Shown one piece after another: positions 4,663-61,582 of a DNA stretch of 64,000 bases. How positions within the stretch are numbered: the stretch's first letter is position 1; the number at the start of each line of letters is the position of its first letter. The notes under the pieces are model-generated. The model was given only the letters and a program-made list of their open reading frames with translations, was not told the DNA's origin and made no database searches. Source of the DNA: Epiperipatus broadwayi (taxonomy: Eukaryota; Animalia; Onychophora); the NCBI GenBank assembly GCA_028023455.1, contig JAQFVV010000011.1:3038001-3102000 (forward strand), read 5' to 3'. The translations under genes and the position numbers were made by a program.

Positions 4663-4858
4663 ATTTGAAGATTTGCTATCTTAATATAAACTGAGCTAAC
4701 TGATCGTATATATGTGTGGGACATGATGATTTGGACCAATTAATGAATGCTGGTTTAGCACGAATATGTATATTGGAGATTATTTATCTTTAGCACGTGT
4801 GTGGCCATGTGTATTAGTTGTATAAGATGGAGTACATAGCTGTGGAAAGTTTGAAATA
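4663..4858 (+). mobile_element. Family B hammerhead element, degenerate copy
   Basis: ggaccaa-ttaatga-atgctggtttagca-cgaat-atgtat-attggagat aligns with the B copies at 17.6, 27.9, 38.0, 38.6 and 55.3-55.6 kb. Confidence 0.75.
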
Positions 4859-5038: not shown

Positions 5039-5697
5039 TAAGGTGACCCGACCGTGTCCCGTGGCGTTTTAAAAAAGTCATGATTTTTAGAAAGAATGCA
5101 CGATGTAATGCTATTTTTGATATCAAAAATAGCATAAAATTGATTGTTAAATTATATATTATTTCATACAAACGGTTTGTATGAAATAATATATAATTTA
5201 ACACGGCAAATTTAGATGTTAGAAAAATTTGCAGAAATTTTAAAAATAATGTGTTTGTTAAAAATAGACAGAGTGATTCAAATATATATATATAATAAAT
5301 TTAAAAAAATAATGTTTGAGATTAAAATATTTAAATGTTTAAAATAATTTTCGAAAAACATTTACATATTTTAATCTCAAATATTTTTTTTTTTTAAAAT
5401 TTCATATTTATTATTTGCGTCACTGTCTGTTTTTAACAAACCCATTATTTTTAAAATTTTTGCTAATTTTTCTAACCTCTAAATTTATGCAAATATTAGC
5501 AAATTTAATAATAAATTTACAATTTATAAATGAAATAATTTTAAAAAAAGATAATATTACAAACATACATATTTAATTTATTATTATTAATGTACGCTAT
5601 ATCTATATAAACGCTCCATATAAACCAAATTTTTAATCAGCCCCCCCCCCCGGTCAATGGTGTCCCGTTTTACCAATGTTAAAATCTGGTCACTTTA
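5039..5697. mobile_element. Nested non-autonomous hAT-type MITE
   Basis: Ends TAAGGTGACC / GGTCACTTTA (9/10 inverted match). Flanks ATGTTTAC (5031-5038) and ATGTATAC (5698-5705) form a 7/8 TSD. Long internal palindrome at ~5208-5486. Confidence 0.75.
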
Positions 5698-5843
5698 ATG
5701 TATACCACCTACATGTTATAAATATTAGTGTACAAAATCTTTCTAAGGGAAACAAACAAGGCAATGTAAATAAATAATTTTTAATATTAAAAAAAAAGAA
5801 AATACAGTTAAAAAAAGTAAATGCATTACAAAACATGTTATAA

Positions 5844-8347
5844 TTATAATAATTTTATACTCCTTGACTTCATATTAATAAACCTTGATATGATTGTATT
5901 TATTTCCAGTTCTGCACAAATATCATTTTCAATAGCAATTAATGCCAAATTAACAAGCCGTTTTTGTGACATAGTTGTTCTCAAGTAAGTTTTAATTAAT
6001 TTTAACTTAGAAAAAGAGCGTTCACCGCTTGCAACACTAACAGGTAATGTTAATAATATTCTTAAAGCTATTGATAAGTTTGGCATAGATAAATTATTAG
6101 AAACTATAAAATTAAGTGTTTCGAAAGGGTTTTGAGAATTTAAAAAATCCTTTTGAAAAATATCTCGAAAAGCACATAATTCGTCGAATAAATCTGTAGC
6201 ATTAATATCTTTACTGTTATCAAATTTCAAAATATTTTCTAAATCTTTGCATTTTGCTTGTAACTCGCTCTTATTAATTTCTGATATTTTATATAGAAAA
6301 TTGAAATTATTATAACATGCTTCGAGGAGTTCAAAGCGTTCTGTTAAAGAATTAATCGCTACATCTAAAAGTGTAAAAAACATGTTTATTTTAAATTTTT
6401 CTTCAGGTATTTGAGGTGTTTCGTCCTGATGCTCGTAATCAAATTGACGAGTTTTTTTTCCGTTGTCGAACTTCTTTGGCAGTTTTAAATTCTTTCTCTC
6501 CATCAACCTCTTCGCTAAGTTCATCTGCAATTTTGAGAATGTTTTTGAAATTTGAATCTGATCGATATTCTCGTAAAAATTTATTTAGATTTGCGATCGA
6601 TTCTAAAGCAAGTGAAGCATTCATATTTACATTTTGGAGCATTTTACTGACAGGATTTATTCTATTTAATATATCATGCCAAATTATTAAAGAACAAATA
6701 AATTTGTAATCCTTAAGGTTAGTGCAGAGTGATTGAGCTTCATGTTGAATTTCTCTATTAAAAGATTCGTTGTTCATTATTTCATAGAGTGCATCATAAA
6801 TTTCACCCAACTGATACCGTAGAGGCCGGATTGCATCAATTCTGCTTTCCCATCGTGTTTCTGATGGTTGTTTTAGAGTTAAAGTTTTAATAAATTTTAA
6901 AAGGATTGACCACCGTTTATAAGATGATGAAAAAAAATTGTATTTTTTTTGAACAATTGCAAAAAACCAATTGTATCTACATTGACTTTGGCGGCATCGT
7001 TTATGATTAAGTTTAAAGAATGAGCAGCACATGGTACGTAAAATGCACGAGGGTTTTTGGTTAAAATCAAATTTTGAAGTCCAGCCTTTTTGCCTTTCAT
7101 GTTGGCCCCATTATCATACCCTTGACCACGCATGTCTTCAATGGGAATCTTCCATTTTTCCAGTTGTTCAATTATTGTTGTACATAAACCTCGTCCAGTG
7201 GAATCTGTTATATCTATGAAACCTAAAAAGTTTTCTCTAATTTTAACCGTTCCATTATTACAAAAAACGAAGCGAATAATTATGGTCATTTGTTCAGTTT
7301 TACTTGCATCTGGTGTACAATCTAAAATAATAGAATAATATTTGGATTTCTTTATCGATAATAAAATTGTTTCCCTAATTGCTGTACTTAAAATTTCCAA
7401 TAATTCATTTTGGCTATCTTTGCTCAAATAATGTACTCTATTGTTTTGATCTAGGGCCCTCTCAACATGATTTTCCATAACGGGATCAAACTTCGCAAAT
7501 AATTCAATTAATTTTAAAAATTTCCGTTATTTTTTTCGTATAATTTATCAGATGATCCGCGAAATGCTAAATTTTGACTACCAAGGAATTTGATAATTTC
7601 AATCAGCCGTTCCAAAACACTCCTCCAATGTTTCTTTTCCATTTCATATAAATTTTGAGATTGACAATCAATAGTAATTTTGTTTTTTAATCTTTTCTCA
7701 AGTTCATTCCAATTCAATAAACTTTTCATGTGAGCCATACTAGTTTCATGTCTGTGTAAAGTTGTACTTAAATTTCTCCAATTATTGTATCCTTCTATGA
7801 GGCTAGATTCAGTAGATCCAAAAACTTTGCAACAAAAGCAAAACACAGAGTTCAAAATTTCGGAATAAATAAGCCATTTTCGAAAAACTACTTCTCCGTT
7901 TTCCATTTTTCTATTATAATATACATCAGAAAATTTACGGCCATGTACATCGTTCGGATATATAATATCTTTCTTTTGAACAGGCCCCATTTCTACTAAA
8001 ATAACACGTAGTTTGTCATCGATTTTATTCCATTCAGCTGGATCTTCTAAATTTGTACACATTTGATATGATATTGGCACAATGACTTTGTTGTCACTTA
8101 ACTGTTTCTTACTAAAATCTTGTTCAATATTTTCAACAGTTCCCTGTGATCTAGATGATGTGCACGGTTCTGGTTCTTGTTGAGTATAAGCTATTTCAGA
8201 AGCAGTTGATATTTTAAGATATTTATTAAGTGATCCACTTTGTTTTTTAATGTTTGCTATTTTTTCAGCTTGGCGTTTACGATTTTGTGCACCGGATAGT
8301 TTTTTCTTAGTTTTTGATTCCATATTACTTTTACTCATGAACGCCAC
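5844..8347 (-). pseudogene. hAT transposase (ZMYM1-like: TTF-type Zn finger, DUF4371/DDE, C-terminal dimerisation domain), ~830 aa, split into four ORFs
   Basis: ORFs 7514-8347, 6897-7478, 6439-7032 and 5844-6530 contain FCFCCKVF, SIILDCTPD, GQGYDNGANM, HSLNL, TRWESR and ASGERSFSKLKLIKTYLRTTM. They join through single-base indels in homopolymer runs. Confidence 0.93.
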
Positions 8348-10329
8348 TTTAAAATAATTTTCAAATGTAATAAATAAATAAATACGGACTCTAATTTATA
8401 TATTTACATCATGTATCTTAATACTTAAGATTATATATCGCTAATTTAGATGTCCAACACAAATTACTTCTTGCGCCAAAATACAAAACTCTATACGCGG
8501 AGGGGAAGAAGTTGTTTAACTTGTTTACCTAAAAAAGGCAGCTAATAAATTGGAAATATTCAGCCATTGACATTAAAAATGGTCAGGTTTTAAAATAACT
8601 CAAGTGTCCAGTTTTTTACGCTTGATTGAACATTTTAGTTTTACCATTGGCAAGATTTTCTTTTGTTATCATATATTTTTCTAATTAACACAGGTGGCCT
8701 GCCAGGCCTGATTTGCGATTTCAATAGAAAATTTCCTGGGATTATAATTATTGTTTACAAGTTCTTACTAAGATTTTAAAATTTGCGATAAACATCATAA
8801 GCAAACGTATGTAATTAATTTGCAAACCTAATTAGTATGCAGAAAAAATAGACTTTTGACAACGATTAAAATATATAAAATAAAAAGTAAACTGAAAATT
8901 ATATTAAGTTTACTGGAATTATACCTATAATATATATTACATACACGTTCGAATATTTATATCAAATTATTATTTAAATAAAAAATTAGAAAATGTTTTA
9001 TTTTGCAATATTATAATCGTTTCTTACGATTTCAAAATTATGTACATGATCTAATATATATATACGCATATACATACATAAGTTCTAATTTATAATACTT
9101 TTAGTGTGTGTTTATTTATATATTTGCTAGCAGAAAGTTACTTATAGTTTACTATAAGCAGTACTATATATATATAAACATTACAATATGAAATTTGTAA
9201 TATAATAAACTTTATGTTTAGTTTATTGTTCATGATAAATAATAGATTTGATTGTTTTATATTTTTAATATTAAGCAGAGCTTGTGTGCAGGCCTGCTTG
9301 TGTGTGTCATTTAATAAGATATAATATGACTTCATATGATTTTCAATAATCTACTCTCAATAATTTTTGTAAATAAACATTTGAGAATAATATTCTTCAA
9401 ATGTGAGTATTTTTGTTAGTAGAGTTTTAATTTCTCAGGGATGGCGCCTTCTTTTTCAGATGCTAATCTCTCAGTGATGGCGCCTCCTTCTGCCAGCGCC
9501 CGCATGCCTAGCATGCGTTGCATGCCCGCTTCCGCCGGCCCTGTAGATAATTATAATCCATTTGCATTGTGTCTGAAATGAAGACATTTCTTCATTCACT
9601 GCTATATCTCACCTAGCCTTCAACTAATTGACTAGTCCAGATTCCATCTTATCTTGAGTGGATTGTCACAGACCAATAGATATATGAAAAGATAACATAT
9701 TCAATAGCAGAAACAGGCCAATGGTTGATGATGCTCAATGAATCCAATTGCTCTCATTATGAATAGGGATCTAGCTATAAATAGTCAGTCCAGTTGAAGG
9801 TAAAGTCAGACAACAATAAATTACTGTCAAATATGAACAACAATATGCACGTTGTTTGCTATTTGACTAAAGCAGTGAGGCAAATTCTTGTTAGAGCTGG
9901 AAGCTGCTAGAGCCCAAATCAGACATGAGGCTAGCTGAGACAGAACATCTGGAAGTGTATACTGTTATGGAACAGCTGAAAATATTACACAAACCTAGAA
10001 ATATGCTTGAAGTTCCTTGCAATAATAATTGCATGGCATCTAAATGCTGTACCAAGCCAATGTATCAGGTGTATAAACATTATTGTACATAATCTATATA
10101 TATCGTATATGTATACACCAACAGATTTAAACAGTTTTGTATAGATTTATAAATATTGTATAAATATGTGAAATAAATATTGAATCATATTTATACGAGT
10201 CTGTGTTTATTATTATCATACATAAACACAACATGCACCAATTCGGATATAATTACAATATCTATATTTATATGTCCTGGGAATCACAATACAAAAGATC
10301 ATAAGAAAGTTTAAATTCTGGCATATGGA

Positions 10330-13481: not shown

Positions 13482-13728
13482 GCAACTCTCTCCACGCATT
13501 AGTGCTACTTAATGCAAGCTATGGTAATAAGCAATTGCAGAATGTCTGTGCATTTAAATTGCTATCTAGTGTCTGCCATCCAATATCCCCAGACTAGTTC
13601 CTAGTTTATGAGTATCATGAGTTAAAAAGTCTTGGATTTGGTATAGGGATTTAAATACAGGAATTTTTTGGCATCTACTGATTTCTGTAGCTTGCACTAG
13701 GTGTCACTATTGTATGGAGAGAATTTTT
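13482..13728. mobile_element. Family A element, degenerate fold-back
   Basis: Antisense copy 13482-13640 with a decayed hammerhead core, followed by a sense 3' segment 13645-13728. Confidence 0.65.
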
Positions 13729-16094: not shown

Positions 16095-17200
16095 TTTTCA
16101 GTAATACATATATATATAAAACAGCTATAAAAATATATATATTAATAATAATTATATATGAAAAGCCCTTTTCAGTACATGATTTTGTGCCCTTTTTAAA
16201 TGTTAAGTATCTGTTTTAATGTTAACCAATTATTGCAGATACAGCACCATCTAGTGTTCCATAATGTAAGTAAAATAACAATAACAAAATAAAACAGAAT
16301 AAAATTATGATAGAGACTTAATACAAGTTTAATGAATTGACTATATACCATATCAATATACAGAATAAATAATATATATGATATACAACTTTATATGTAC
16401 TATCTTATATAATTTTCCATTCATTTTTAATTGACCAGTTGTTAACTAAATTTATTGAAGTTTTATAAATATTCATGTAATTATTTAAATTATGCTTAAA
16501 AGAATATGTTTCACATATAAAGCAGATTTATCATTTCACCTATTAAATGCATTGTTATGTTATTTGGTTCTTACCCCTAAGTGTTTTCTTGCATGACTAT
16601 AGTAAATCATATTGTATATCACAATTAATTTTATATATAATTATTTTTTGTATTCTATATTGGCTTTTAATTTGTAATCACTTATTAATTTATTCAGACT
16701 ATTATTATTTGACCATCCAATATTTATATATTTATCAATTTTTGGTTTTTTATTAATGTGTTATAAATTTTGGGTTAATATTAAAGTTTGATCCAATTCT
16801 TATTTGAACCTATTATTACTATCACTGTTAAAATCATTTTGCATAGAAATATTATTTAATATAGATTTTTTAGAATTAAAAAATATATTTTTAATATTCT
16901 TTATATCCACAATCATTATATAATTTAATACACTGATTCTTTTGTAAATCAACCACATTTTTATGTGTATTATATTTATCGTTTCTGTATTTAAAATTTT
17001 TAATGACTACCATCTTTTGTACCCATGCTTGCTGTGAATCTATAGGTATATATTTTTCTTAATTTGTTTTCTTCAATAAAATGTTTTAATATAATTTTGT
17101 CATCACTATCTGTGTAAATTTCTATATCTAAATATTTAATTTTATCTTCAAATTCTACTTTTGAAAATGTAGTATTATATATCGATAGATAATTATAAAT
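16095..17200 (-). mobile_element. Decayed Penelope-like element (RT C-terminal region, GIY-YIG endonuclease, 3' region)
   Basis: Minus-strand translation across frameshifts gives KVEFEDKIKYLDIEI, IPIDSQQAWVQKM..KNFKYR and IYKINCD-YNMIY...RTK*HNNA..KSAL. These match the PLE FTxExE..FLD, IP..S.HP..QK and YKIxC..C..YIGQT..R.KEH motifs. Confidence 0.7.
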
Positions 17201-17222
17201 TAAGAGGCAATATAAAATACAA

Positions 17223-17801
17223 ATTATTTATCTTTTCAACATATATGTGTTCAAGTGTATCAGTGATATGAGATAGAGTGGTGAATGGTGGGTCATGTGA
17301 AAGTCTGTGTTCATATACCCTATACATTATATATATTGATACAGGTATATAATAGGCCTATATTTTAGTTTTTGCGTAGTAGAGATGTCTGCCCATCCCT
17401 TGTATATGTATTAAATGGATTATGCCCTGTACATGAGGGGTCAGATTGACTTTAGGTCAACATGGCTGTACAAGAATCTCAGCCTCAGGGTGGCCTTTGA
17501 GCATTCTATCATCAGATTTTCAATTGGATGGATGGTTGAGGAGTTGGAATGTGGAGTGGATTGAAGTCTGTCCATTAAAGTATGAAGATTAGCTATCTTA
17601 ATATATATCTGAGCACTTATTGCATATATGTGTAGAGATGATAATCTGAACCAACTGATGATTGCTGGTTTATCATGAAATACGGATATTGCTGATTATT
17701 TATCTTTTCAACATATATGTGTTCAATTATATCAGTGATATGAGATAGAGTGGTGAGTGGTGGGTCATGTAAAAGTCTGAGCTCATATACCCTATACATT
17801 A
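17223..17801 (+). mobile_element. Family B hammerhead element: one 472-nt monomer plus 107-nt terminal redundancy
   Basis: Direct repeat starts at 17223 and 17695. Hammerhead core CUGAUGA at 17655-17661 and GAAA at 17677-17680. Confidence 0.9.
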
Positions 17802-17802
17802 A

Positions 17803-18430
17803 AAAAGAAATTGTATATAAAATTAATGGTGACCATTACAATATGATTTACTAGAAAAATACTGGGAACCAGATTAAAGAATCAAAGAACATAACAATGC
17901 AATTAATGGACAAGATGCATTCACTAATTAACACATGGACATAAAATAGATGCTACAAAAATATTAAACTTTTAAATTATATTAAAGATCCAAAAATAAA
18001 GCAAATATCTAAAACATATTACATTAAACATAACATATGACTATTTACAAAACTTCAATAAATTTAATTAATAGCTGTTTAATTAAAAATGAATGAATAA
18101 TTTTATAATTAAGTATATATAAAGTTGTATAGTGTATATATTATATTATTTATTCTGTGCATTGTTATGATTATATGGTCAATTCATTGAACATATGTTG
18201 AACCTTTACATTATAATTGGATTCTGTTTTATTTTGTTATTGCTGCTATTTTACGTTTATTATAGAACACTAGATGGTGTTCTATCTGCGATAATTGGTT
18301 AATGTTAACGTAGATGCTTAACCTTTGAAAAGGGTATAAAACCATGTACCAAAAAGACTTTTTATATGTAATTATTATTAATATATATATATAGCTGTTG
18401 TATATGATTATTATTGATTATAATTTATAT
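17803..18430 (+). mobile_element. Second Penelope-like fragment (GIY-YIG plus 3' region), inverted relative to 16095-16650
   Basis: Reads IVYKINGDHYNMIY...RIKEHNNAIN. It forms a diverged ~550-bp inverted repeat with 16110-16650. Confidence 0.7.
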
Positions 18431-22114: not shown

Positions 22115-23055
22115 ATCATCATCATCATCAACCATTATCAATCCACTGCAGGATGAAAGTCTCTCCAAATTCAATCCAACTTCTCCGATCTTTAGCTTCT
22201 CTTCTCATCATCCCTGCACACTTTTTTATTTCATCCAGCCATCTCACGTGTGGTTTCCTTCTGGGTCTTTTGCAACCTCTTGGCTTCCAGTTTAAGATTT
22301 CAATTGTCCATCTATTATCATCTCTTCTAGCAATATGTCCAGTCCAACTCCACTTCAGTCTTTTAATTTTTTCAATAAGGTCAGTAACACCTGATTGTTC
22401 CCTTACCCATATATTGCGTTTTTGATTTCTTCTTGTTACTCCCAACATGCATCTCTCCATACTTCTTTGAGTGATCTGAAATCTCTGTATTGCTCTTCTA
22501 TTAAGTGTCCAAGTCTCAGATCCATAAGTAAGAACTGGTAAAACACATTTATTAAAAACCTTCCTTTTCAAACACATAGGCATATTTCCTTTTAATATCA
22601 AGTTATTTCTATCAAAAGTATTCCAACCAAGCTTAATTCTATGATTAATTTCATCCGTTATGCTTCTATCTGTATTAATAATCTGACCAAGGTATTTGTA
22701 GCTGTTAACTTCTTCTAACTCATCATAGCCAATCTTTATTTTCATATTTTGAGAAAATCCATTAAACATTACTTTAGACTTTTTAATATTTATCTTTAGT
22801 TCTACTTTCCTACGTTCATCTGATAACTTGTGCAACATTTCCTGCAGTTCTAAAGCATTATTTGCAAAAACAACTAAATGACTTAAATAATCTCCATTTA
22901 CTTTCACTCCTTTAGATTCCCATTTTAATCCACAAACTACTACTTGCAGCACTGCTGTAAAAAGTTTTGGAGATATGGAGTCACCCTGTCTTACACTCTT
23001 CTCAATGTTGACTTTCCTAGTATCATTATGCAACCTAATTGTTGCTGTTGCATTT
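22115..23055 (-). mobile_element. 5'-truncated RTE (BovB-like) LINE with (TGA)n tail; 301-codon ORF lacking the catalytic FADD motif
   Basis: ORF 22128-23033 has VRQGDSISPKLF, YKYLGQ, LPVLTYGSETW, GHIARRDDNRW and RPRRKPHVRW. The (TGA)n tail is at 22115-22130. Confidence 0.92.
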
Positions 23056-23393
23056 TTATTAGTAAAAGATTATCAATATTTTTTAAGACTGCAACTTTTC
23101 TGGTTTTCCCATCTACATAATCCAACCTTAGGTGATTATCTTTCCAATCTACATATTTAAAATTTAATATAATTTAAAATGATTTTTAAAAAGTTTGCCA
23201 AACTATTTACTAGTAAAAATATTCCATGTAACTGTACAAATAAATGAATAATTTGTGTGCAAAGGTTTTAATAATTTGTTGTTATACTGTATTTTTATCA
23301 AAGGTTGTATGGTTAGTGAATCTGTCTGCTATATCTATGATCTGGATTGCAAATGTGGCTGAATGTTGAAATTTTATGTTCAATAGATGAGAA

Positions 23394-27850: not shown

Positions 27851-27854
27851 AAGA

Positions 27855-28115
27855 GTTGTAAGTTGGAATAGTTTGAAGCCTGTCCATTAAAGTATGAAGA
27901 TTGGCTATCTTAATATAAAGCTGAGCACTGATTATATATATGTGTGAGGATAGTAATCTGGACCAACTGATGATTGCTTGTTTAGCATGAAATACGTATA
28001 TTGTTGATTATTTATCTTTTCAACATGTGTGTGATCAGGTGGGTCAGCAATATGAGATGGCACTGAGAGTAGTGGGTCGTGTGAAAGTCTGAGTTCGAAT
28101 CCCGCCTATATTACA
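27855..28115 (+). mobile_element. Family B hammerhead element with intact core and helix III
   Basis: gaccaa-CUGAUGA(27967-27973)-u-UGCU-uguuu-AGCA-u-GAA-AUACGUAU-A(28000)-uuguug. Confidence 0.88.
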
Positions 28116-28293
28116 TATATAAATGCAGGTTTTAGCCTGTGCAATGTATTAAATAAAAACTTTATGAAATGAAGAACACTTACATTCATAATACATTGAA
28201 CAGAAAAAAATATATACAAAGATTTATGTCATTTGCATTGACGAGATATATCTCTAGATACAAATATAACTTTTTAATATCCCGAAATGGATG

Positions 28294-28631
28294 AAATAAT
28301 ATGGAAGCGCTGAAACTTCCAGCGAGCTATATGTTCACTGTCACTAAACGTAAATGTAGAATGCGCCCACCTACATTTTAGCTTTAATCGTATATAGGCA
28401 TCCCATTTGCTGACATACGTGCACGCAGAGCGTGATTTATGTATACTACCGTAATTTCAAGACAACTATAAGCTATTCTGAAATTATTGTAACTAATCAT
28501 TGAGAAAGTAGGTCAATAAATGGTATGCTACTATACATTCAAAGCTAAAGTGTAGGTGGGATTATTCTATATTTACTGCCAGTTAGTGCGCTCATTACTC
28601 GCAGGGGATTTTCAGTGCTTCCGCATTATTT
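28294..28631. mobile_element. Unclassified MITE/fold-back with ~120-bp imperfect inverted arms
   Basis: Arms 28294-28414 and 28512-28631, for example cccacctacattttagcttt / aaagctaaagtgtaggtggg. Confidence 0.7.
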
Positions 28632-29736: not shown

Positions 29737-32315
29737 ATGACCTCTCAAAGAACATAATCATGAAAAGCATTATGTTTTTTGAGAGGTCAATGGAAGAGAC
29801 CAAACTTCCACTCATTATTCAAAAATGATATACAGAGTTTAGTAATATTAAAATTAGGTGACTGGTGAGATCATAAATTATATGCAATATCATGTGCTGT
29901 ATTATTTAAATCAATAATGGTTACATAAACTATAATTTATCATCTAATATCTAGTAGTATCATATATAATAAGAAATGAGTCTGGTTCTCTGAACTTTTA
30001 ATGTGGAAGAATAATTGGACCCAAAAATAACAATGTATGTTCTCTAACTCATAATAGTTCAACCAATAATAAACTATGGATATTTTATTATAGCAATATA
30101 GTAAACTGTATATATTCTTTGAAAGCACTCAGTACTAAAAATGCATCTTATGTACAAAATCCATATTTTCTCTGTTGTCTTATTAGTGAATTATGAATGT
30201 TTGTCCAATGTCATGTGTCAAATTCACAACCACAGTGTTTATGTGTAGGAAGTAATTTGTGCTTTTAATTACAGGGATATAGTATAAATTTTACAGTAAA
30301 GTTATCTGCCAGCTGCAGAAACAACCACAAATGTCAATTCATAATTCGGCATTAAGAAAATCCATGTTTTATTGGTGTCAATTCCCTAATATAATTCAGA
30401 TGATTGACATACTTAGCAATGTTTAATAAAAAATATATATATTCACCTTAAATCTTAATTTTTTTTTTACGAATACTATATTTAATAAAAAAAATATTAC
30501 AAAAATAGCCGGTGTTTTTGCATTCTAACATTAATAAGCAGTAACTATTAATAAAACGAAAAGAAGCTATTATGATATAGTCATGATTTCTATTGAAAAA
30601 TCAAAAAAAAATTAAGTTTTTTATTCAGAGGCACTCCAGTAAATATATATTTGCACCTTAACGTTACCAAATATAACAAATATGTTTAAAATTGTAAATT
30701 TTAATTTAGCTTTATCAAAATTTGGATATTTATTTATATAATATTAAAATGTTTTATTTAATTCACATTAAATCTTTAAAAAAAATTTGTTAAAGCAATC
30801 AATTATTACAAAAATGATGGGCTGAAAACCTGGAGATTTTGTATTCCACTGTAACGACAGTCTTTCAGATCAGTATATAATTTTCACATTTAAAATCTTT
30901 TGTTTAATTTAAATTAAATCTTAAAAAAATTGTTAAAGTATGGGCCTTTACAAGATTGGATGCATCTGTTTGGGATATATTCAATGTTTTTGATATTTTC
31001 TCTATGTAAGAAACATTAATATAATTGCAGATATTTTACTAAATTTTATTCCATGTCTCTCTGACATACTTTAAAAATATTAACTCTTTTTAATAGTTGG
31101 AAAAATGTAATGATATTTATATAAAACATATGATATGCACTGGAACATCTACATCAACTTTTTTAAGTTTGTAACATCACTTCTTCAGTAACATAAAACA
31201 GTGCTTTTGAAAAGAATTTTTTTCACAAAGCTAATAATGTTGTAATACTTAGGGAACTTTAATCAGATCTTAGAATATTCTTATTAAAATGTTTCATTAT
31301 GAGCCTGTCTTCAAAATAATTCTGAGTAATGTATTTGGAATGAGAGGATTCTGTGAAATGATTATAATTTTAAATGTTACATATTAAAGCAGTAGTAAAA
31401 GTTATTTATGTACTGTTGAAATTAGTAATATTTAGGGAACTATAAACATGGTATTAACATCTCCAGTTGATTATTCCATTGTAGTTTTGTTTTTTCCCCC
31501 TAAAACAGGCTTTCTTAATAAGCACTGACATCTAAGTACAGATGCAATCTCTTTATACATGTCTATTATTTGTTTAATATTTATTATCATCAAATTACTA
31601 CAATTTAATCTAAAAGTGCTAAATTTTCTGTACTCACATGTTTGATATCATTCATATTAGATAAATATATTGATGATCATTGTTAATCATTTATTAAGTT
31701 GTGGATTACTATATCATTTATCACACAAATATAAACTTTAAATATTGTTAAAGATTAATATATTTATTTTTTAATAACTATAAACACGTGGTATAAGTAT
31801 ATTTAAAAAATACATATGAAAGAAGTAAAATGAAGTCAGATTAATGATTCATTAACTTATAATTGGGTTTGAAGTATATATCTGGATTGGTAATGATATA
31901 ATAATCCCTAACACAATGAATGATTATTAATAATAATTAGATGCCAAATATGTTAATACAGGTAGTTTAACTTTGAATATATCTGTAGTAAAATATTTTA
32001 AATGTAATTTGAAATAATAGACTATTCATTTAAAATTACAGTATGCATAAACATTATTTATTATTATATCTTACCGTTTAGAAAAAAATAATATTAAAAT
32101 TGTACATTAATTCATTTATTTGAGAAAGTGTAGGTTGAAAACAAATATTTCCAAATTATTTTTAAAATATATTATATCCATTTGCATTTCTTTTATTAAA
32201 CCATTAGTTATAAAATAAATATTGTGACTTTTCAAAGTAGATAAATTAAAAACATTAATTCAAAATATTTTCAAATTACTATTGTTGTTATTATTATTAA
32301 TTACATAGAATAAAA

Positions 32316-32519
32316 TTAACCTTTAAACCTGCATTGTTCATTTTAGTGTATAAATCTATTCACACTCACCAGTTAATAAGAGTTTAAAAACATAAGTGAG
32401 TCACTTGGCTTATATAAGAATACGCTCTAAACACAAGTGATTCTTTTTACAATTCTTACTGATGGGTAAATGTGCATATACTTATACACTAAAATGAATA
32501 GCACAGGATTGAAGATTAA
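32316..32519. mobile_element. piggyBac-type MITE (196 bp between TTAA sites)
   Basis: TTAA at 32316-32319 and 32516-32519, with ~55-bp imperfect TIRs (shared core ttcattttagtgtataa). Confidence 0.75.
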
Positions 32520-33128
32520 ATTTCTTCTATGTAATTACACACAAAAATAAATATATATACACAAAGCTAAACTGTTAACTTATATATTATTATTGTTGTT
32601 GTCTCTCTTATCTCACGTGTATTTCATGAGCAATTTTTGCTCTTCAGGTGAGTTAAAAAGTAACAGTATATCTCTATGTTGACAACTTGATAGCTTTTAT
32701 AACATCACTCTGATGCAAAGTAGATTTAAATCACCAGATGAGAGGTTTGTTCATGAAATGCATATATAGTGAGAGAGAGTAGTCAAAATTTCTGTACTGG
32801 TGGGCCAACTGTGATTTAGTGAAGTTGAAATGAGAAAGGCATTGATAAAGCTCAACTTATTAGTCCTGACTTCAAAAATCACATAATCTCTTAAGCAACT
32901 AACCATGTGATTTTAAAAAAATATATAGCTTTTTTATAATCAGAGCACCAATATTGTCTGATGTGCGTTGCAGTTCTAAAGAGATTATTTTGTTAATTTT
33001 CTCTCCCCATTTTTATTTTGTAGCTTTTTTAAAACTCATACATTAAACTAAACATGTCATGGATTTTTTAAATGTAATTGATATTCTTTTTAAGAGACAT
33101 ATAAATATAGACTATTAGTACAGTAGCA

Positions 33129-33490: not shown

Positions 33491-33645
33491 AAACTCTTCA
33501 TACAGTAGTGTCACCCAGTGCATGACTTAGTAATTAATGAATGTTAGAAGGTTTGTACATAAAATCTTTATCTAGTGCCTACTCATCCAATATCCCCAGA
33601 TTAGTTTCTAGCTTGTGGGTTTCATCAGTGAAGAGCCTTGGAATA
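33491..33645 (-). mobile_element. Family A hammerhead element
   Basis: cucuuca-CUGAUGA(33628-33622)-aacccacaagcua-GAAAC-UA-AUC-ugggga. Confidence 0.85.
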
Positions 33646-34447: not shown

Positions 34448-34595
34448 TAAACCACTAAATATCTCATGATCACCATTTCTTATGCTTGCTCATAAAGGCA
34501 CTAGATAAGGATTTTATGCACAAGCCTTCCGGCATCCACTGATTACTCTGGCTTGTATTGAGTGGCACTACTGTATGGAGTTTTGTCTGTTTTTA
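34448..34595. mobile_element. Family A 3' fragment with inverted tail (no hammerhead core)
   Basis: Antisense far-3' tail at 34448-34497 is joined to a sense segment at 34497-34595. Confidence 0.75.
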
Positions 34596-35505: not shown

Positions 35506-36866
35506 CTCACTAATGAAGAAAAGGTGGTCTACATATGATGCTGAATTCAAAAGAAAAGTTATATTAGTTTTTATTTAAATAAATAAAAATGTTTCTTATT
35601 TTTCAATATCATACCTATTAAAATCATTTTCAGATTTTTTTTTCAATTTTCCAAGCTTAGAATCCTACTGCAGTTTAAATTTAAGGGCAGCTTGTATTCA
35701 AAGTAATATGGTATCATAATTTAGACAGTACCAAATGCAATCTAATATCAGATAAGAGATTAAACATAAGATTTTGTCTGTTTTCAATTATTTTCTCTTT
35801 TTTTTTAGATGCATTAAATTATCAATCAAATAGCAGATCTTAGTATTGTAAGCTAGACTATTATTGTGGCTTGTTGGCATAACAACTTAAATAATTCTTA
35901 AAAGCTAAGAATCACTGTCTTTATATTGTATAAAATCGATTTTACTATATAGCTCCCCCCCCCCCCAGTTTTCTTTCAATTCCTATTTAATTTTTTCACA
36001 AATGTGTGTGAGCTTTATTTTAACAGATATTTTCTTTTCTAATCAAATTTTATATCATCTAATTAGATGTACTTTCCCTGTCATTTCAATTTTAATATTT
36101 TTTTAAAAAATTTTGGCTTTATTAATTAACTTAATATTCCGATTCTATGCTTTGCACTTAAAAAGCTTGTATTTGGATAAGCAATACATATGGTTTTTCG
36201 AAAATATCTCAATTATAATAATTACATGTCAAATCATTTTATAGTAATTCTTTACTTTGTAAATAGTGTTTAAATACTTTCAAAATAACTATTGGAAGTT
36301 ATAGTGAGAGACAAAGGAAAAAAGGATTGGAAAAAAATAGATCATTAAAGCAAATGATGAAAGAAGAGAAAAAATATATATAAATGGTAGCCTTTGGCCT
36401 AATGGCTGTTATTTATATATCTAAAGCTCCAAATTCAATTCTGTCACTATTCAGATCAACATCGCATGAAGAGAGAATAATAATATTAAGAAAGAGAAAA
36501 TAATATTGTATTAAGAAAAGAATAATAATATTACTATTTATCTCGAAACATTGTATTATATACTAATCTTTGTGCTATTATTAATAGTTGAAAGTAATTG
36601 GAAAATTTAAATAAAGTTTAAAATGTTTTAAAGACTTTCAATATTTAATGTTAGATTATAAAAATCCAACATAATAAGCACAACTCAAATGCCATCATCA
36701 CAAACATAAAGGCAAACACATGATAGACATAGTCAAAATAAGAGTCATATATCACATGACCCTATCTCTTAAGCTTGTAAGTTACAAACCATGAGGATTG
36801 CCAATTCCTCTACAAGCTTTATGATAAATGCTTAGCCAGAATCAGCACTTAAAATATCTCTGTCAG

Positions 36867-36937
36867 GAACCCCTCCCCAAACCCCTGACCATGGTTTTGT
36901 GCTTTGGCACTCCTCAGAGAGGTGTCTGGGTAGGTTC
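36867..36937 (-). ncRNA. Type I hammerhead motif, family E (G12>A)
   Basis: ACCUCU-CUGAGGA-GUGC-caaa-GCAC-aAA-ACCAUGGU-C-AGGGGU. Confidence 0.85.
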
Positions 36938-37423
36938 AGACACTAAATCTAAAAATAGCAACCCAAAGCCAAGCACTTATCTAAAAGTTATCTATTGAGT
37001 AGAAAATCTGAAATTTTCAGACATCTACATGTCTTCAAACCCAGCTATCCAACTCAAATAGCTATATGGGGGTGATAGATCTTCAGCCATACCATATATT
37101 AGTAGTCTTAGCAATATAAAATTGCATAAGACTTATGGTAATCCTCATTGTTTATAACTTACAAGCTTAAGAGATAGGGTCGTGTGATATATGACTCTTA
37201 TTTTGACTATTTATAGTCTCTGCCATAAGTCTTATGCAATTTTATATTGCTAAGACTACTAATATATGGAATGGCTGAAGATCTATTAGCCCCATATAGC
37301 TATTTGAGTTGGATATCTGGGTTTGAAGACATGTAGATGTCTGAAATTTTCAGATTTTCCACTCAATAGATAACTTTTAGATAAGTGCTCGGCTTTGGGT
37401 TGGTATTTTTAGATCTAGTGTCT

Positions 37424-37494
37424 GAACCTACCCTGACACCTCTCTGAGGAGTGCCGAAGCATAAAACCATGGTCAGGGGTTTGGGGAGGGGTTC
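37424..37494 (+). ncRNA. Type I hammerhead motif, family E (G12>A)
   Basis: ACCUCU(37438-37443)-CUGAGGA(37444-37450)-GUGC-cgaa-GCAU-aAA-ACCAUGGU-C(37474)-AGGGGU, with an extended distal helix I. Confidence 0.85.
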
Positions 37495-37659
37495 CTGACA
37501 GAGATATTTTTGAGTGCTGGCTCTGGCTAAGCATTTATCGTAAAGCTTGTTGAGGAATTGGCAATCCTCATTGTTTACATGATAAACATGTATCATTTTC
37601 TTACTATAACTATAGATCATAATGTATTGTAGGAAATAACACATTTAAAATATTAGTTT

Positions 37660-37975
37660 TCTGATTAGTTGTTTCTGGACTTCCATTATTTTTCTTAAAT
37701 ATTTTATTGAGTATATTCTTTAGTGTAGTTGTCTTGATAAGATTATGTTAGTGTCGAAAGTGTCTGGAATATTATGTATATGAATTTATAGAGTGTTAGT
37801 CTTGAATTATTTCTGTTAAGAATCAATAGATGTGTTAGTTTTAATATATTTTAAAATACTTTCCTCATTCGGCTGCATGCTGTTGGATTTTTTGTTTATT
37901 ACCAAGTTTGCACTATAGAAAAGAGTATGGTTTTCAGCATGTGCCAATAAAGTAAATTTGAATATATTATTTCCT
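37660..37975 (-). mobile_element. Possible Penelope-like RT C-terminal remnant
   Basis: NIFKFTLLAHAENHTL..LVINKKSN resembles the PLE I.FT.E.E.N..L.FLD..I.K motif. Confidence 0.45.
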
Positions 37976-38735
37976 GAGCACTTATTGCATATATGTGTAG
38001 AGATGATAATTTGGACCAACTGATGATTGCTGTTTTGGCATGAAATACATATATTGATGATATGAGATAGTGTGGTGAGTTCTGTGAAAGTCTGTGCTCA
38101 TATACTCTATATATTACATATATTGTTGATAAACCACTAAACATCACATTCACTATTTCTCATTAAAAAAAATTTTTTTTTAAAAAAATAAAAAAAAAAA
38201 TATTACAATATAAAAAGGGGGTTTTCCTTGAATTTATTAAAAAAAAATTTAAAAAAAAAACAAAAAAAAAAAATATTGTTGATATTGGTATATAATAAGC
38301 CTGTATTTCAGTTATTACATAGTAGAGATGTCTGCCTATGCCTTGTATATATATTAAATGAATTATGTCCTGTACATGAGGAGTCAGATTGATTTTAGGT
38401 CAACATGGGTGTGGCAAGAATCTCGGCTTTGGGTGGTCTTTGAGCGTTCCATCAGATTTTCAATTGGATGGACGGTTGAAGAGTTGGAGTGTGGAGTGGA
38501 TTGAAGCCTGTCCATTAAAGTATGAAGATTGGCTATCTTAATATATATCTGAGCACTTATTGCATATATGTGTAGGGATGATAATTTGGACCAACTGATG
38601 ATTTCTGGTTTAGCATGAAATACATATATTGGTGATCATTTATCTTTTCGACATATATGTGTTCAAGTGTATCAGTGATATGGGATAGAGTGGTGAGTGC
38701 TGTAAAAGTCTGTGCTCACATACCCTATATATTAT
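37975..38735 (+). mobile_element. Family B tandem dimer (two hammerhead cores)
   Basis: Cores at 38020-38026 and 38595-38601. The 575-nt spacing includes a short deletion and an A/T-run tract at ~38150-38275. Confidence 0.88.
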
Positions 38736-39789: not shown

Positions 39790-40600
39790 TATAAAGTTTT
39801 TAAAATAAATAAAACTGCACCGGATAAAGGGCGCGGTTAGCCAATCATTTCTATTCCCCTTTTAACACAAATAATTGCGCTTTAAGAAGTAGAAATGAGT
39901 GCACACGTGACTTAGGATTTTGAACTAGCAATTAAAAATCTTTTTAAGGTCGCAAACAATCCAACTATATATCCTACAGCGCGTGATAAATGGTATTCAG
40001 CCATTTTTAACTGTAAAGATAGTAAATGAATCTGAGCTAGTCAGATAAAATATTGATTCACTGAGTATATATTTTCTAGGTTTTTGGAAATTTTAACAAT
40101 GCATCCCTTATCTTAATTTCACCATATCATTACTACTCACCAGATCGGAAAGTCACAAACCCCCTAAAAGTATTAAATATCTGAATTTTCACACTCATAT
40201 TGACAGCCCAAAAGGAATTGAAGTCTATTCATTTTTAACATCTTATGAAAGGATGAACAATCCAATCATTTGTACCAGGTCGAACCGCTGAAACCACCTA
40301 CTTATGCGTATATATAAGTTTTGGCCAGTTTCAAACTCCTTCATAATACATTTATAATCTTATAAAGGTTACGTGAATGAACCGGCACGTTCGAGCAAAA
40401 TGGGAGATCTTATTGATAGCTTTAACTATCAACAATGGCCCATCTCGGCTGCTAGATTCAAACCCCTACTATCCAAATACTTTATTTGTTTCGGGGTAAA
40501 CCCTGGGGCACCAGCTAGTCTGAAGACTAACGTATTCGGGCAGTAGGCTCATAATCCAGCACTCGAAACATTCCCTTAAACTAGCTCAGTCTAATTTTCT
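39790..40600. promoter_or_regulatory. CpG-retaining region, candidate promoter
   Basis: Many CpGs in a CpG-poor background, with GGGCGCGG, CCAAT (39841-39845) and E-box CACGTGAC (39904-39911). No linked exon identified. Confidence 0.3.
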
Positions 40601-43797: not shown

Positions 43798-44765
43798 AAT
43801 AATACATTAATAATTCAATACACTTCTTTCCTTATTATTTTGTAATTCAATAAATAGGAATAGTTCGCTATAAAGGAAAGATTAACAATATTACAAATTA
43901 ACTACAGCTTAACACTGCGTTCGACCGGGTGCGCTGTAATTAAATTGTTAATTTTTCTTTTATAAAAAACTATTCTTATTTATTGAATGTGTTAACAAGG
44001 CATTACATAAAATAAACCAAATACATGCCATCAGAACTCAGAAAGTATTTTTGTTTTGAATTAAATCGATTCAGAATTTTTTTAACTTTTCATAACTACA
44101 ACATCAATGGTTTGTTTTAAATTGACAAGTCCTAATAGAAGATGTACATTTAGTTAGCTTTAATCCAATAAACATTAAAATTGCTAGCATGGAGTGAGAT
44201 GTCTGAAAATGAAAAGTAAAGAAGATGTGGTTTATTGCAAATAACGCCCATGCCATTAATAACAAAGAAAATTGCCTCCAACTTTCAAACAAATGTAATA
44301 TTTAAATAATTAGCAACTTGCCTATAAATTCTACAGCATATCTACTATATTATGAATGTTATTAATCTGGTTTCTCTGGCCGAATTAGTAAAATAAAGAT
44401 ATAGAATAAACTTTTCCCCTAGCCTGTATTAGAAAAGTTTTAGAAAATTAATTACATAAGAGTGAATCAGTAAATTATTTAACTTTCTTGGATGGATGTT
44501 TAGTGATTCAGAAAAGAAACTAAGCACACAAATGAAACTACATCAGGAAACAAAATACAATATTATCAAAAAAAAATTTAAAAATAAAAATATTTATTTG
44601 AAATAGAAAATAATTAAATCTTTAATAAAAAAAACCTTTGTCTAATTGAATTAAAATTTATAAAAAGATAATTCTAATTAGTTGAAAGTTCAAAATAATG
44701 AAGTACATATAACTGACTTTTTTCTTCTTGTCTGCCAATAAATAGGGTTCTGCATTAATTCTTTT

Positions 44766-45182
44766 TATGTAAAACTTAATAACCTTGATACATATAGTGA
44801 AATTAAAATTCTTTTAATTGAAATAATTCTTCATCACGGCTTAGCGGTTTCAGAGATTCTCTCTTCATAATCATAGCCTTTAACTGTAATAATTTATACA
44901 AATTTATGCAAGTTTGTTCAGATGGTTCATCTTTTCAAAATAAAAAAGCATGCATCTTTTCTGTTTATTGCGTTTACATCTCTCGCTATAAACCATGCCA
45001 TTTTAATCTTCCTTTTTATATTATTCCTTTCAGTAGATATTATAGTAGCATTTGCAGGTTCGAATTCATGATTATGATTATGGAGAGAGAATCTCTGAAA
45101 GTGTTAAGTCGTGGTGAAGAATTATTTCAATTAAAAGAATTTTAATTTCACTATATGTGTCAAACGTATTAAGTCTTACATA
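44766..45182. mobile_element. MITE with ~110-bp near-perfect TIRs, TA-flanked
   Basis: catatagtgaaattaaaattcttttaattgaaataattcttca is mirrored at 45115-45157. Both ends read TA-TGTAA. Confidence 0.85.
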
Positions 45183-46330: not shown

Positions 46331-46526
46331 GAGTGATTGTTGATATTTATTTTAGAATCCTCATTCAGTTTTAATTTTTTTGTTGTAAATATATGATTAT
46401 ATTATATAATGAGCTTGCAAATAACTTGTTAAATTAGGTCATGTGACATACGACTTGATTTCTTTGTATATGATTATATATTAAACTCCAACCAATGAAT
46501 AAGAAGTAGCTTAGTTATAATAGTGC

Positions 46527-46745
46527 ATACAGTAGTGCCACTCAGTGCCAACCAGAGTAATCAATGGATACCAGAAAGTTTGTGCATAAAATCCCCATCT
46601 AGTGTATTCATCCAATATCCTCAGACTAGTTTCTGCCTTGTGGCCTTGGTGAGTGAGGAGCTTTGGATCTGAGAGCACTGCACCTTTAATAACAGTTATG
46701 TGCTAGCATAAGAAATGGTGATAATGTGATGTTTTGTGTTTATAA
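46527..46745 (-). mobile_element. Family A element with inverted 3' tail; core mutated
   Basis: Antisense copy 46527-46685 (core CUCACCA; GAAACUAGUC intact), then the sense tail taataacagttatg... Confidence 0.85.
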
Positions 46746-54600: not shown

Positions 54601-54729
54601 GAATATAGCTATGTTCAGATAAACATGTTCAATTGTATCTAATAAATTTTAATTTATTTTTAACAAAACACATATGTTTAATAAAGGATAGAAATGAGGA
54701 AACAATATCCATGCAAACAAAAATGATCA

Positions 54730-54949
54730 TTAACCTTTGGAATTTATTACCAAGGAATTATCAATTGCTACTAATTGACAATCACTGAGGTTAAATCAGT
54801 TTTCTCATTAATCTAGAATAGGTCTTTTGTTGAAATTTTTTTTAGTTGTTGAAGTAAAAGAGCTATTATAGTTTAATGAGTAAACTGGTTTAGCCTCAAG
54901 GATTGTCAATTAGTGTTAATGATAATTTCTTGTTAACATCAAAGGTTAA
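54730..54949. mobile_element. piggyBac-type MITE (212 bp between TTAA sites)
   Basis: TTAA-CCTTTG...CAAAGG-TTAA with ~85-bp imperfect TIRs. Confidence 0.8.
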
Positions 54950-55239
54950 AGGTTATCTCTATTTACATGAATATTATCTCCTCATTTCTATTCTTTATTA
55001 GAATAATTTAATTCAACACGTTTTTTATATACATAGTATATAAATTAAAATTTTAATATAAAGAAAATTTAAAAAACATATATAATAATGGTAAATTGAG
55101 GCACATACCCATTTATTTTTTATTCACTGAAAAAATAAGAATAAGAAGAAACAAATTACTGTACTGTAATTCTATTTTTTAATAAAGTAATAACTGAAAC
55201 ACACAGCTTATTATATACCTATGTCTATATATGTAATAT

Positions 55240-55705
55240 ATAGGGTATATGAGCATAGACTTTCACATAACCCACTACTCTCCACACTATCTCATAACAC
55301 TGATACACTTGAACACATACGTTGAAAAGATAAATAATCACGAATATACGTATTTCATGCAAAAACAGCAATCATCAGTTAGTCCAGATTACCATCTCTA
55401 CACATATATGCTATAAGTGCTCAGATATATATTAAGATAGCCAATCCAAATACATTAATGGACAGGCTTCAATCTACTCCACACTCCAACTCTTCAACCA
55501 TCCATCCAATTGAAAATCTTAATATATATCTTAATATATATCTGAGCACTTATAGCATATATGTGTAGAGATGGTAATCTGGACCAACTGATGATTGCTG
55601 GTTTAGTATGAAATACATATATTGGTCATTATTTATATTTTCAACATATATGTGTTCAAGTGTATCAGAGTTATGAGATAGTGTGGAGAGTGGCGGGTTG
55701 TGTGT
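55240..55705. mobile_element. Family B divergent inverted pair (two hammerheads)
   Basis: Minus copy 55240-55519 (core 55378-55372) and plus copy 55516-55705 (core 55588-55594). ATCT microhomology at the junction. Confidence 0.9.
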
Positions 55706-57329
55706 AATAAAGTAAATAGTGAAACACCTGATTGTCATTCTGATTAAATATGCCCTGGATTATTATTTTTTTCAATATTTTTTTCTTATAGAAATATATT
55801 ATGAAAAAACTATGATCTTTTAATATTTTTAAATCAGTATTTATTTTAAGCATGTTCTAAAACTTTGTAAAACTTGTTAGAAAATAATTTATTACACAAA
55901 ATACTACACACCAAATTTAGAAAAGGTAATAAGAGAAGAATAAAATATATGTTATTCCAACATAAACTGAAATTTTTTTTATTAATGACTATAGTCATGG
56001 ATAGAGCTATGAGAAAAAAAAAATGGCTGCTAGTATAATTGAAAATTTATTAGCAATTTTTTTTGAAAAATATAATCATGTACAACACTCAGAAATAAAA
56101 AAATGGCTGTTTGCATATTATAACATATATTAAATTTATAAATTTTAATGTTTTTTTTTTGTTTGTTTATTTACATTTTTTTAATAGTATATAATTATGG
56201 CTTCACTGTATAATCTTTCTCATTTTCAATATTTATTAATGCTCATTAAAGTATTCACTTTACAACTGCCATATTTCTGTCAAATGTGAGTCTACCCATA
56301 AATATATAACTGACTATCAATTTTTCATTATAAAGCTTGAAATTATTGTATTTATTTTAATTTTAAAGATAGACTTTTTTTTTTTTTTTAAAGATCAAAT
56401 AAGATCTTTTATTGTTTATATATACATAATCCTTTTCTTTTAACTATTCTAATGTCTTCACTCATGCACAAACATGATCTTACATATTTTTAAAAAGTTC
56501 AACTGTTAAAAAAAATAATTAAATGAATTATTATTTAAGAGTTCATAAAACGTTTGAATGAGAGAAATGATAGAGCTAAAATCATGGTGCATAAACATGA
56601 GCCCTAAAGTTTACCACTCTATTTTTTTTTGAACCATGCAGGATTCTTCAAATGTATCATTAACTTAAACATTGGCAAAATATGTAAATGATTTCTGATA
56701 TGTATTAAATTTGACATTTTCTAACTTAATAAATAATGACATAATCATTTAAATATTTTTGTTAAAAGGCATAGAAGTTTTAACATTCTTGCTTGAAATA
56801 ATGTGAAGTGAATTTACATAGTATATATTAGATAATTATGTTTTGATACTCTGCCATTCTAAACATTAATGTAAAAAATACCAAGACAGTTTAAATATAA
56901 AATTTAGAAAGATTTATTGTATCAAGTATACTTTTAACCATTTCGTGTCATATTCATGATTAGTCTGTTGAGAACATTAATGTGTAAAAAAATCTAAGAT
57001 TAAGCCCCAAGCTCTTAGTGATCTGTCTTTCATAATCATGACAGAGAGCACGGTAATTGTGATCCAACTATTGTCAAAATTATGTGTACAGAAAGAAATG
57101 ATCACAATTGTAAAATAAAAGAACATGGTTCATTAGACAAAATAAATATGCAATGAACCAAAAATCAAGTAACATTCAAATTAGCAAAAAAATATATTTT
57201 CAGCAGACTAACTATGAATATAATGCAAAAACATTGAAAATATACTTGGCACAAAAACCTTTTCTAAATTTTATATTTAAACTCTGTTTAGGTTTTTGAT
57301 AAATACATACGTTAAAAATATAGTTAGTA

Positions 57330-60114: not shown

Positions 60115-60430
60115 ACAAAACTCTCTATAGGTATTGCCACTCAGTGCAAGCCAGAGTAATCAATAGATGCCAGAAGGCTTGTGTATAAAATCTCCATCTA
60201 GTGCCTACTCATCCAATATCGCCAGACTAGTTTCTGGCTTGTGGCTTTCATCAGTGAAAAGCCTTGGATATGAGAGCACTGCACCTAGATCTTAGGATCT
60301 AATGCAACTTTCCAGCAGCCACCTTTTATTTTTACTTAACTATGCTGAGTCGCAATACATACAGAGAGTTTTGCCTATTTTAATAACAGTTATAAGCAAG
60401 CATAAGAAATGGTGATCATGTAATGTTTAT
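60115..60430 (-). mobile_element. Family A element with intact hammerhead core and inverted 3' tail
   Basis: uuuuca-CUGAUGA(60254-60248)-aagc-cacaa-gcca-GAAAC-UA-GUC(60225)-uggcga-ua-uuggau. Sense tail at 60361-60430. Confidence 0.9.
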
Positions 60431-60999
60431 TGGCTTAAATAATCAGAGGCTGAAAAAAAAACTTGAAACTAAAAATTCCTATCATTTCACAAGCAGTCAC
60501 CATTACAAATTATTATCTCATTTGAAAACTAATTACTGTTAACTATGTTTATTTCATTATAATCTATCTATTTGATTTATATGCATATACAAACTAATAA
60601 TATAACATTGATCTGTAAATGAATATCTTGATATCCTTATATAGAGGTAAAATATAATTGAAAAAATACTCAAAACTTAATACCCTACAATTGGCAAGTT
60701 TTGTAAGTACTGCCATTTGCTCCATTCTTCCTCTATATGATCTTTGTAGAAGCTTTTGCCCTGAATTGTATATTTATTGCACAAGCTGTTTTATATTTTT
60801 ATCTTAGAATAATTATACTATCAATAAAGTAATCTTATAACCAATTATTAGCATAATATGATTCTAAAGACTAGAATCAAATTAATGTTATATTACATGA
60901 TGTCATAATGCTACTAAATCCAGTTATTTTATCTATTTCATAGATAACATTATGTAAATGTTATTAATTATTGATTATAACAAAATAATCTATAGCAAT

Positions 61000-61077
61000 C
61001 TCTTCATACAGTAAGTGCCACCTAGTGCAAGCCATAATAATCAATTGATGCACTAGGTGGCCCTACTGTATGGAGTT
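61000..61077. repeat. Short fold-back of the family A 3' end
   Basis: Arms catacagtaagtgccacctagtgca / tgcactaggtggccctactgtatg. Confidence 0.75.
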
Positions 61078-61582
61078 GCTACTGTCTTGACAGCTTGTGT
61101 AATCATAGGAAATGATTATCATGTGATGAACATGATAATCACTAATTTCCTGATAATAAATCATTAGTTAAGCTAATAATACAGTTAAATAAAGAGAGAT
61201 TTTATTAATTTGCACTTGTTGCACATAATAGTTTGACAGTTTTTATTAATGCAGGGTTATAACATTAATTTGTTTTTGCTTTTTATATATATATATTACT
61301 GTCAAACACAACATAATCCCAAAATAATAAATTACAATTTTAAAACTGCAATAAATTTCATGTAAATGTAATTGACATCTTGACTTAAAAAAAAAAAAAA
61401 AACACTTTGTAATTTACCCATAGAAAAAAATACTATTAATATGAGCAAATAAACATTTTATATTAAAAAGCAAACAAATCAAATTAAAAAAGAAGTTTTT
61501 TCAATATATAAAGAGACAAAAATAATATAAAGATGGCAAAATTTATATAGATTATGGTGTAATTATTTTTTTTTTCAGATAG

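Follow-up and report, generated by a model that had tools for sequence, protein, structure and literature searches.

A head-to-head pair of permuted hammerhead-ribozyme units flanked by a 13-bp duplication suggests a retrozyme insertion made by a Penelope-like element

Metazoan non-LTR retrozymes are described as non-coding repeats of 150–450 bp with a type I hammerhead ribozyme, a GC content under 45–50% and strong self-pairing, flanked by duplications of more than 4 bp and present as dispersed copies in high number (Cervera and de la Pena 2020, PMC7229834; Li et al. 2026, bioRxiv 10.64898/2026.07.22.740005; these and the following sources are cited for the sections concerned). Head-to-tail arrangement of the units, expression as linear and circular monomer RNA and self-cleavage in vitro also count among the traits of the class. 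Penelope-like elements (PLEs) have been proposed as their mobilisers (PMC7229834), and a kinship of the two has been argued from co-occurrence and trees, with scant life-cycle evidence in the relevant sections of the preprint (bioRxiv 10.64898/2026.07.22.740005). Insertions of EN+ PLEs typically consist of a head-to-head inverted, 5'-truncated copy with a one-sided tail and a short duplication (PMC3846280, PMC8557442, PMC11167929, PMC4209133); in the passages cited the tail measures 30–40 nt, the duplication 8–10 bp in rotifer examples, and the hammerhead lies upstream of the start sites. In vitro, both strands are cut and extended by purified PLE protein; synthesis begins inside the RNA at two sites, one at each boundary of the tail and both downstream of the hammerhead, and uncleaved RNA is used and preferred (PMC11167929). 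Hammerhead pairs on opposite strands, 100–700 bp apart, were noted in earlier work that also covers double hammerheads (PMC4209133).

In the window, the whole 64-kb stretch of DNA analysed here, positions 36731–37576 comprise two head-to-head, permuted copies of one non-coding unit with a period of 423 nt, which we term family E (Table 1). The alignment thus bears out the back-to-back, circularly permuted 423-nt copies described in the initial annotation. Of the extent given there (36727–37576) the right end holds, but the insert begins at 36731; likewise, the junction does show microhomology, though TGG instead of GG, and the terminal redundancy of the right arm is 18 nt instead of 17, matching at 17 of 18. 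Over 408 aligned sites the two arms show 21 differences (13 transitions, 8 transversions) and one gap, and they are the only family-E copies in the window. What the annotation overlooked is a 13-bp target-site duplication flanking the insert. A match of 12 out of 13 was reached by none of 1500 random site pairs (5-nt slack), and in a wider null search two of 400 pairs equalled its score. As the duplication abuts both outer ends, the 3' ends of both arms were joined to the sides of one staggered cut, indicating a retrotransposition-like insertion; a misassembly, or unique DNA duplicated in a single event, would not account for it. The annotation had itself named a unique template-switch duplication or a misassembly as the contrary case, against which stand both this duplication and the high-copy family described below.

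Table 1. Coordinates of the family-E insertion and of the other hammerhead families in the window; ends with a plus sign are distances (nt) from the ribozyme cut.
Feature	Position	Strand	Remarks
Target-site duplication, left copy, 13 bp	36718–36730	+	12/13 identical to 37577–37589
Left arm, 408 nt	36731–37138	−	Unit 87–423, then 1–72; 3' end at +156 from ribozyme cut, distal start site
One-sided extension (tail), 55 nt	36731–36785	−	At outer end of left arm only; compare PMC8557442, PMC11167929 (sections on tails)
Hammerhead core, type I, left copy	36881–36923	−	A at G12 (36898); predicted cut after 36887; Rfam 27.8 bits
TGG microhomology	37136–37138		5' ends of both arms meet here
Right arm, 441 nt	37136–37576	+	Full 423-nt unit plus 18-nt terminal redundancy; 3' end at +101 from cut, proximal start site
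Internal copy of tail sequence	37154–37208	+	Continues into remaining unit; head-to-tail join ~37209–37223, bridged by family contigs
Hammerhead core, type I, right copy	37438–37480	+	A at G12 (37463); predicted cut after 37474; palindromic helix III
Target-site duplication, right copy, 13 bp	37577–37589	+	12/13 identical to 36718–36730
Family-A insertions, short/long ends	+114/+171, +112/+171–173, +100/+169, +110/+171		Offsets 57, 59–61, 69 and 61 nt
Family-B insertion, short/long ends	+81/+142		Offset 61 nt
Family A	1958–2547, 13482–13727, 33491–33642, 34448–34588, 46525–46739, 60115–60435, 60992–61085		Type I, short palindromic helix III
Family B	4663–4833, 17223–17801, 27851–28130, 37953–38734, 55203–55704		Unit ~472 nt; AUA cleavage triplet

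Both arms contain all hammerhead parts that had been claimed (helix I ACCUCU/AGGGGU, CUGAGGA, GUGC-tetraloop-GCAC, palindromic helix III and a GUC site), and the reported replacement of the catalytic G12 by A was confirmed in each. The Rfam model Hammerhead_1 matches the left copy only, with an E-value of 2.5e-4 and a score below the gathering score of 34, and no match to any Rfam model in the window reached the gathering score of that model; ranked by E-value, the scan of the whole window returned only hairpin-driven chance matches. The unit has a GC content of 38%, compared with 24.5% and 28.5% in the 1-kb flanks, within a window that is AT-rich, transposon-strewn and has a CpG observed/expected ratio of 0.36, features that point to an animal host. 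Its predicted circular fold has a z-score of about −7.5 (none of 40 shuffles was as good) and its linear fold one of −6.6, with the right-copy hammerhead at the tip of a long predicted rod (~37380–37555). The predicted fold contains 25 G-U pairs on the ribozyme strand versus 5 on the opposite strand, and the longest Met-ORF in the doubled unit spans 39 aa, so that the earlier picture of a hairpin-rich, G-U-bearing unit, GC-richer than its flanks and lacking a credible ORF, agrees with all three measures. Five of the 13 arm differences at paired sites break a predicted pair, as expected of decay, and no compensatory, two-sided changes were found among the arm differences.

In unit size, GC content, self-pairing, the length of the duplication and its high copy number in dispersed copies, family E resembles the described non-LTR retrozymes, from which this locus differs in being head-to-head instead of tandem and in having two ribozymes that lack G12. 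The proposal of a retrozyme-type family is therefore supported by its sequence traits, the family being known here from DNA. The word 'inverted' is absent from the main text of PMC7229834, and among the papers since 2020 that a literature search listed, none describes, judged by title and abstract beginning, a head-to-head, tailed anatomy in retrozymes. The palindromic helix III is like that of dimer-requiring hammerhead forms, and the two hammerhead regions co-fold into a predicted double hammerhead at −68.8 kcal/mol, versus 2 × −30.8 kcal/mol for the single ones. Intact family-E copies are predicted to cleave mainly as double hammerheads. Even a unit lacking G12 could be released in this paired form, which a palindromic helix III favours (PMC4209133, passages on double hammerheads).

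Hammerhead viroids carry ribozymes in both polarities, are not known to have a resident DNA form and are infectious RNAs. With these and with viroid-like circular RNAs family E has its size, branched fold and hammerhead in common, but its type I ribozyme lies on one strand only, its helix III is of the dimer type, its chromosomal DNA form is abundant and nothing points to an infectious RNA. A motif scan of the opposite strand of the 423-nt unit found no CUGANGA core. The label 'viroid-like' of the initial annotation does not fit this one-stranded ribozyme or the abundant DNA repeat seen in run X1 (see below), and a hammerhead viroid or infectious viroid-like RNA was rejected as a candidate on these two grounds.

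A run search listed family E in 22 sequencing runs from 9 studies and 11 organism codes, none of them on record as RNA, and contigs were aligned to the right arm (440 bases) for four of the 22 runs, termed X1, X8, X6 and X5 (2 organisms, 3 studies); X1 may come from the sample that yielded the window, and the small shares in organisms C–K were given no weight. Matching contigs numbered 29,814 in the DNA run X1, 444 in X8, 514 in X6 and 363 in X5; summed contig depth is not equal to copy number, and the contigs are short and cannot reveal circles or array length. Family E clearly occurs at high copy number in two or more organisms. At position 37463, G made up 67% of the depth in X1, 87% in X8, 97% in X6 and 98% in X5, indicating that copies with an intact G12 are the norm of the family; the higher share in the runs guessed to be RNA (87–98%) was given no weight, as contigs cannot rank depth and these runs may be DNA. 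Joints going back 423–424 bases were present in all four runs, X1 included, and the other join of the unit (37222/37223) was crossed with at least 31 letters on each side by 5 among the 32 records listed. Together, these joints show that head-to-tail copies exist in DNA, and the G12-bearing, head-to-tail relatives predicted from the window alone are real. An intact hammerhead motif is nevertheless no guarantee of activity, as one of nine Xenopus retrozyme elements tested was found to cleave (Li et al. 2026, bioRxiv 10.64898/2026.07.22.740005, in the section on these assays).

Two irregularities appeared along the unit. The runs guessed to be RNA showed a dip in depth at 37212–37241, which was likewise given no weight; in X8 and X6, three contigs depart from the unit upstream of 37228, where they have a long stretch of different sequence that may belong to a longer parent element. 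Separately, position 37412, at the foot of the ribozyme stem and 62 nt upstream of the cut, is directly preceded by unrelated and mixed sequence in 173 contigs of X1, and many family-E copies seem to begin there. Scans for exact motifs yielded no matches to family E in public metagenome and viral contigs and none to family A (see below) in public metagenome contigs. Family-specific sequence words were not found in print; the supplements of PMC7229834 and of the preprint may list the family.

The run data also bear on how the arms acquired their A12. The family CpG at G12 is decaying in X1 (T in 43% at 37462, A in 33% at 37463), and CpG deamination, as originally suggested, may be the ultimate source of the A. 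An independent decay in each arm is disfavoured, however, since besides A12 both arms carry minority letters in common at 37189 (13%) and 37541 (38%). The chance of three independent matches is about 0.13 × 0.33 × 0.38 = 0.016, a rough, depth-weighted figure that ignores linkage. A12 was thus probably inherited from the template, and a single source lineage in which A12 was already present probably supplied both templates, so that the copy was probably dead on arrival. At nine or more sites over 90% of the X1 depth stands against the right arm, with the left arm having the family letter. Accordingly, at all four 'CpG' differences it is the right arm that has gained and not the left that has lost, as the left arm matches the family letter. 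At 37182, 37456, 37512 and 37540 the change is A to G on the RNA strand, accounting for four of nine polarised right-arm changes and running against the AT drift of the genome; these could reflect A-to-I editing of the template, for which the numbers are too small.

The placement of the 3' ends recurs in two other type I hammerhead families of the window, families A and B, whose ends were likewise measured from the ribozyme cut. Five insertions, four of family A and one of family B, are head to head, each with one short and one long end (Table 1; the +171 of family A and the +142 of family B are the reference arms themselves), and three further family-A long ends lie at +169 to +173 against the reference +171. 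The duplications of the five insertions match at 17/18, 13/14, 9/10, 13/13 and 20/23 positions; in four of them the score exceeds all 400 null pairs, and in A5 it is within chance (49/400). At two more head-to-head family-A loci (13482–13727 and 60992–61085, ends set by eye), both ends lie near the proximal site, and no clear target-site duplication was found at either. In total, six of the eight head-to-head loci of the window have a one-sided tail. Several further copies of family B have ends at +111 to +119, which match neither start site.

Family-A copies are mostly head-to-head stubs with 10–18-bp duplications and 3' ends at about +100–115 or +169–173. Their duplications frequently start with element-like sequence, which suggests microhomology priming. 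Within family B, 17223–17801 is a partial tandem enclosed by an inverted-repeat pair (16114–18405), 55203–55704 is the head-to-head pair with the 20/23 duplication, and the tandem at 37953–38734 is broken by a family-A tail and A/T runs. The tails of family E (36751–36770) and family A (1969–1991) have a motif of ~20 nt in common that ends 11–20 nt before the long end. For the tails alone the similarity was significant (3 of 3000 shuffles and 13 of 3000 window segments were as good), the motif having been chosen post hoc, and over the full downstream region it was not significant (197/2000). The motif is absent from family B; it is a candidate enzyme-recognition site.

Taking together the directly observed duplication, head-to-head arms, TGG, 55-nt tail, high copy number, joins and G12-intact relatives, we favour, at a probability of roughly 0.7, a single insertion of a non-LTR retrozyme of the animal type, for which a PLE probably supplied the endonuclease and reverse transcriptase (RT) in trans. 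The enzyme would cut both strands 13 nt apart, and each 3' end would prime reverse transcription inside an uncut RNA at a fixed site, +101 or +156. Both cDNAs would then run back through the uncleaved ribozyme, and their 5' ends would be joined, the arms now meeting at the TGG microhomology. The locus is like EN+ PLE insertions in its inverted copy, one-sided tail, short duplication and the position of the hammerhead upstream of the start sites. In contrast to the PLE examples in the passages cited above, it lacks an RT-endonuclease ORF, its tail is 55 nt instead of 30–40 nt and continues into the next non-coding unit, and its duplication has 13 bp instead of the 8–10 bp of rotifer PLEs. No ORF combining an RT with a GIY-YIG endonuclease was found at the locus or among the window ORFs, and neither Pfam searches of 10 window ORFs nor a crude six-frame motif scan of the window revealed a partner PLE.

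The permutation of the arms had first been read as pointing to a circular or multimeric template. As evidence for a circle this is not supported: two start sites combined with different 5' stopping points are enough to produce both permutations, the five further insertions fit this anatomy, and a tandem RNA explains the permutations equally well. One linear RNA from −338 to +156 would hold both arms and only one ribozyme, and would stay uncut because of A12. As the template of the PLE-made insertion we lean towards an uncut tandem or read-through RNA; a jump between short RNAs, taking place where the RNA would naturally have its 5' end, around unit position 87, appears improbable, although the three contigs that diverge before 37228 would agree with it. 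Copying from a covalently closed 423-nt RNA circle, with each enzyme going once round, is conceivable and on balance unlikely. Such circles are established for retrozymes of coral, mussel and axolotl (PMC7229834, section on circular RNAs), neither arm end falls at the cleavage site, and both arms (408 and 441 nt) are within 18 nt of one unit, while other arms of the window span ~50–580 nt. Yet the closeness of both lengths to one unit is a single observation made post hoc, the linear RNA suffices, and unprocessed RNA is accepted by PLE protein in vitro (PMC11167929, section on RNA templates); the back-joints occur in DNA too and cannot demonstrate a circle. We regard as rather doubtful the fuller proposal that the insert is the footprint of a retrozyme circle copied once round from both cut ends by a PLE dimer, with the motif in the E and A tails marking the enzyme-recognised site.

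A further reading, which we consider poorly probable, dispenses with a free retrozyme family: the arms would be the clipped ends (pLTR plus tail) of an autonomous PLE, and the 423-nt period would arise from an RT jump near unit position 87 to another RNA just past the tail. The PLE-typical anatomy agrees with this, and the left arm stops at the equivalent of 37223, at most 5 nt from the divergent upstream sequence of the three contigs of X8 and X6. However, contigs span the junction of tail and body in each of the four runs examined, the summed depth of X1 does not fall there, and the unit is without an ORF in any frame and folds as one strongly paired predicted structure with the ribozyme at the rod tip.

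Twin priming by LINE-type elements also yields head-to-head arms, a duplication and microhomology, with arms that are largely non-overlapping and a 3' end that is A-rich or a simple repeat. All of the first three features are present here, and the window contains RT and zf-RVT fragments (22128–23069 and 614–1300), but the arms overlap almost wholly, begin at two fixed internal sites and have no A-rich or simple-repeat end, so that an L1- or RTE-like enzyme acting on a retrozyme RNA through twin priming is very unlikely. A DNA-level fold-back duplication of a satellite monomer by template switch or repair, or an assembly artefact, is extremely improbable, for although both are common in high-copy repeats such as this unit and repair would fit the junction microhomology, neither would leave 13 bp duplicated on the two flanks, 21 sites distinguish the arms and the end geometry recurs in two unrelated families.

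Under the preferred reading of a PLE-made retrozyme insertion, a full non-coding unit with the PLE signature of inverted arm, tail and duplication would provide independent anatomical support for PLE-driven retrozyme mobility. The locus bears on both the mover and the template of animal retrozymes and gives exact predicted priming sites (+101 and +156). As the element class and the insertion anatomy have each already been described, the gain is incremental unless a circular template is shown. If the circle footprint were true, the locus would prove by its anatomy that animal retrozymes pass from circle to genome, as has been proposed, and would name two priming sites.

Other parts of the window contain further mobile-element remains. 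A broken hAT transposase (PF05699, PF14291) occupies 5145–8395 on the reverse strand, with palindromes at 5145–5203 and 5208–5486. The non-LTR retrotransposon fragments comprise the RVT_1 match at 22128–23069 and the zf-RVT match at 614–1300, the latter near an (ATA)74 microsatellite (1548–1769). Isolated hammerhead-core-like motifs of other sequence types occur at 40520 (+) and 20539 (−). Besides the pair at 16114–18405, inverted repeats were found at 28294–28631, 32298–32537, 43845–43988, 44766–45182, 54679–55000 and 56888–57283, possibly representing MITEs or other fold-back insertions.
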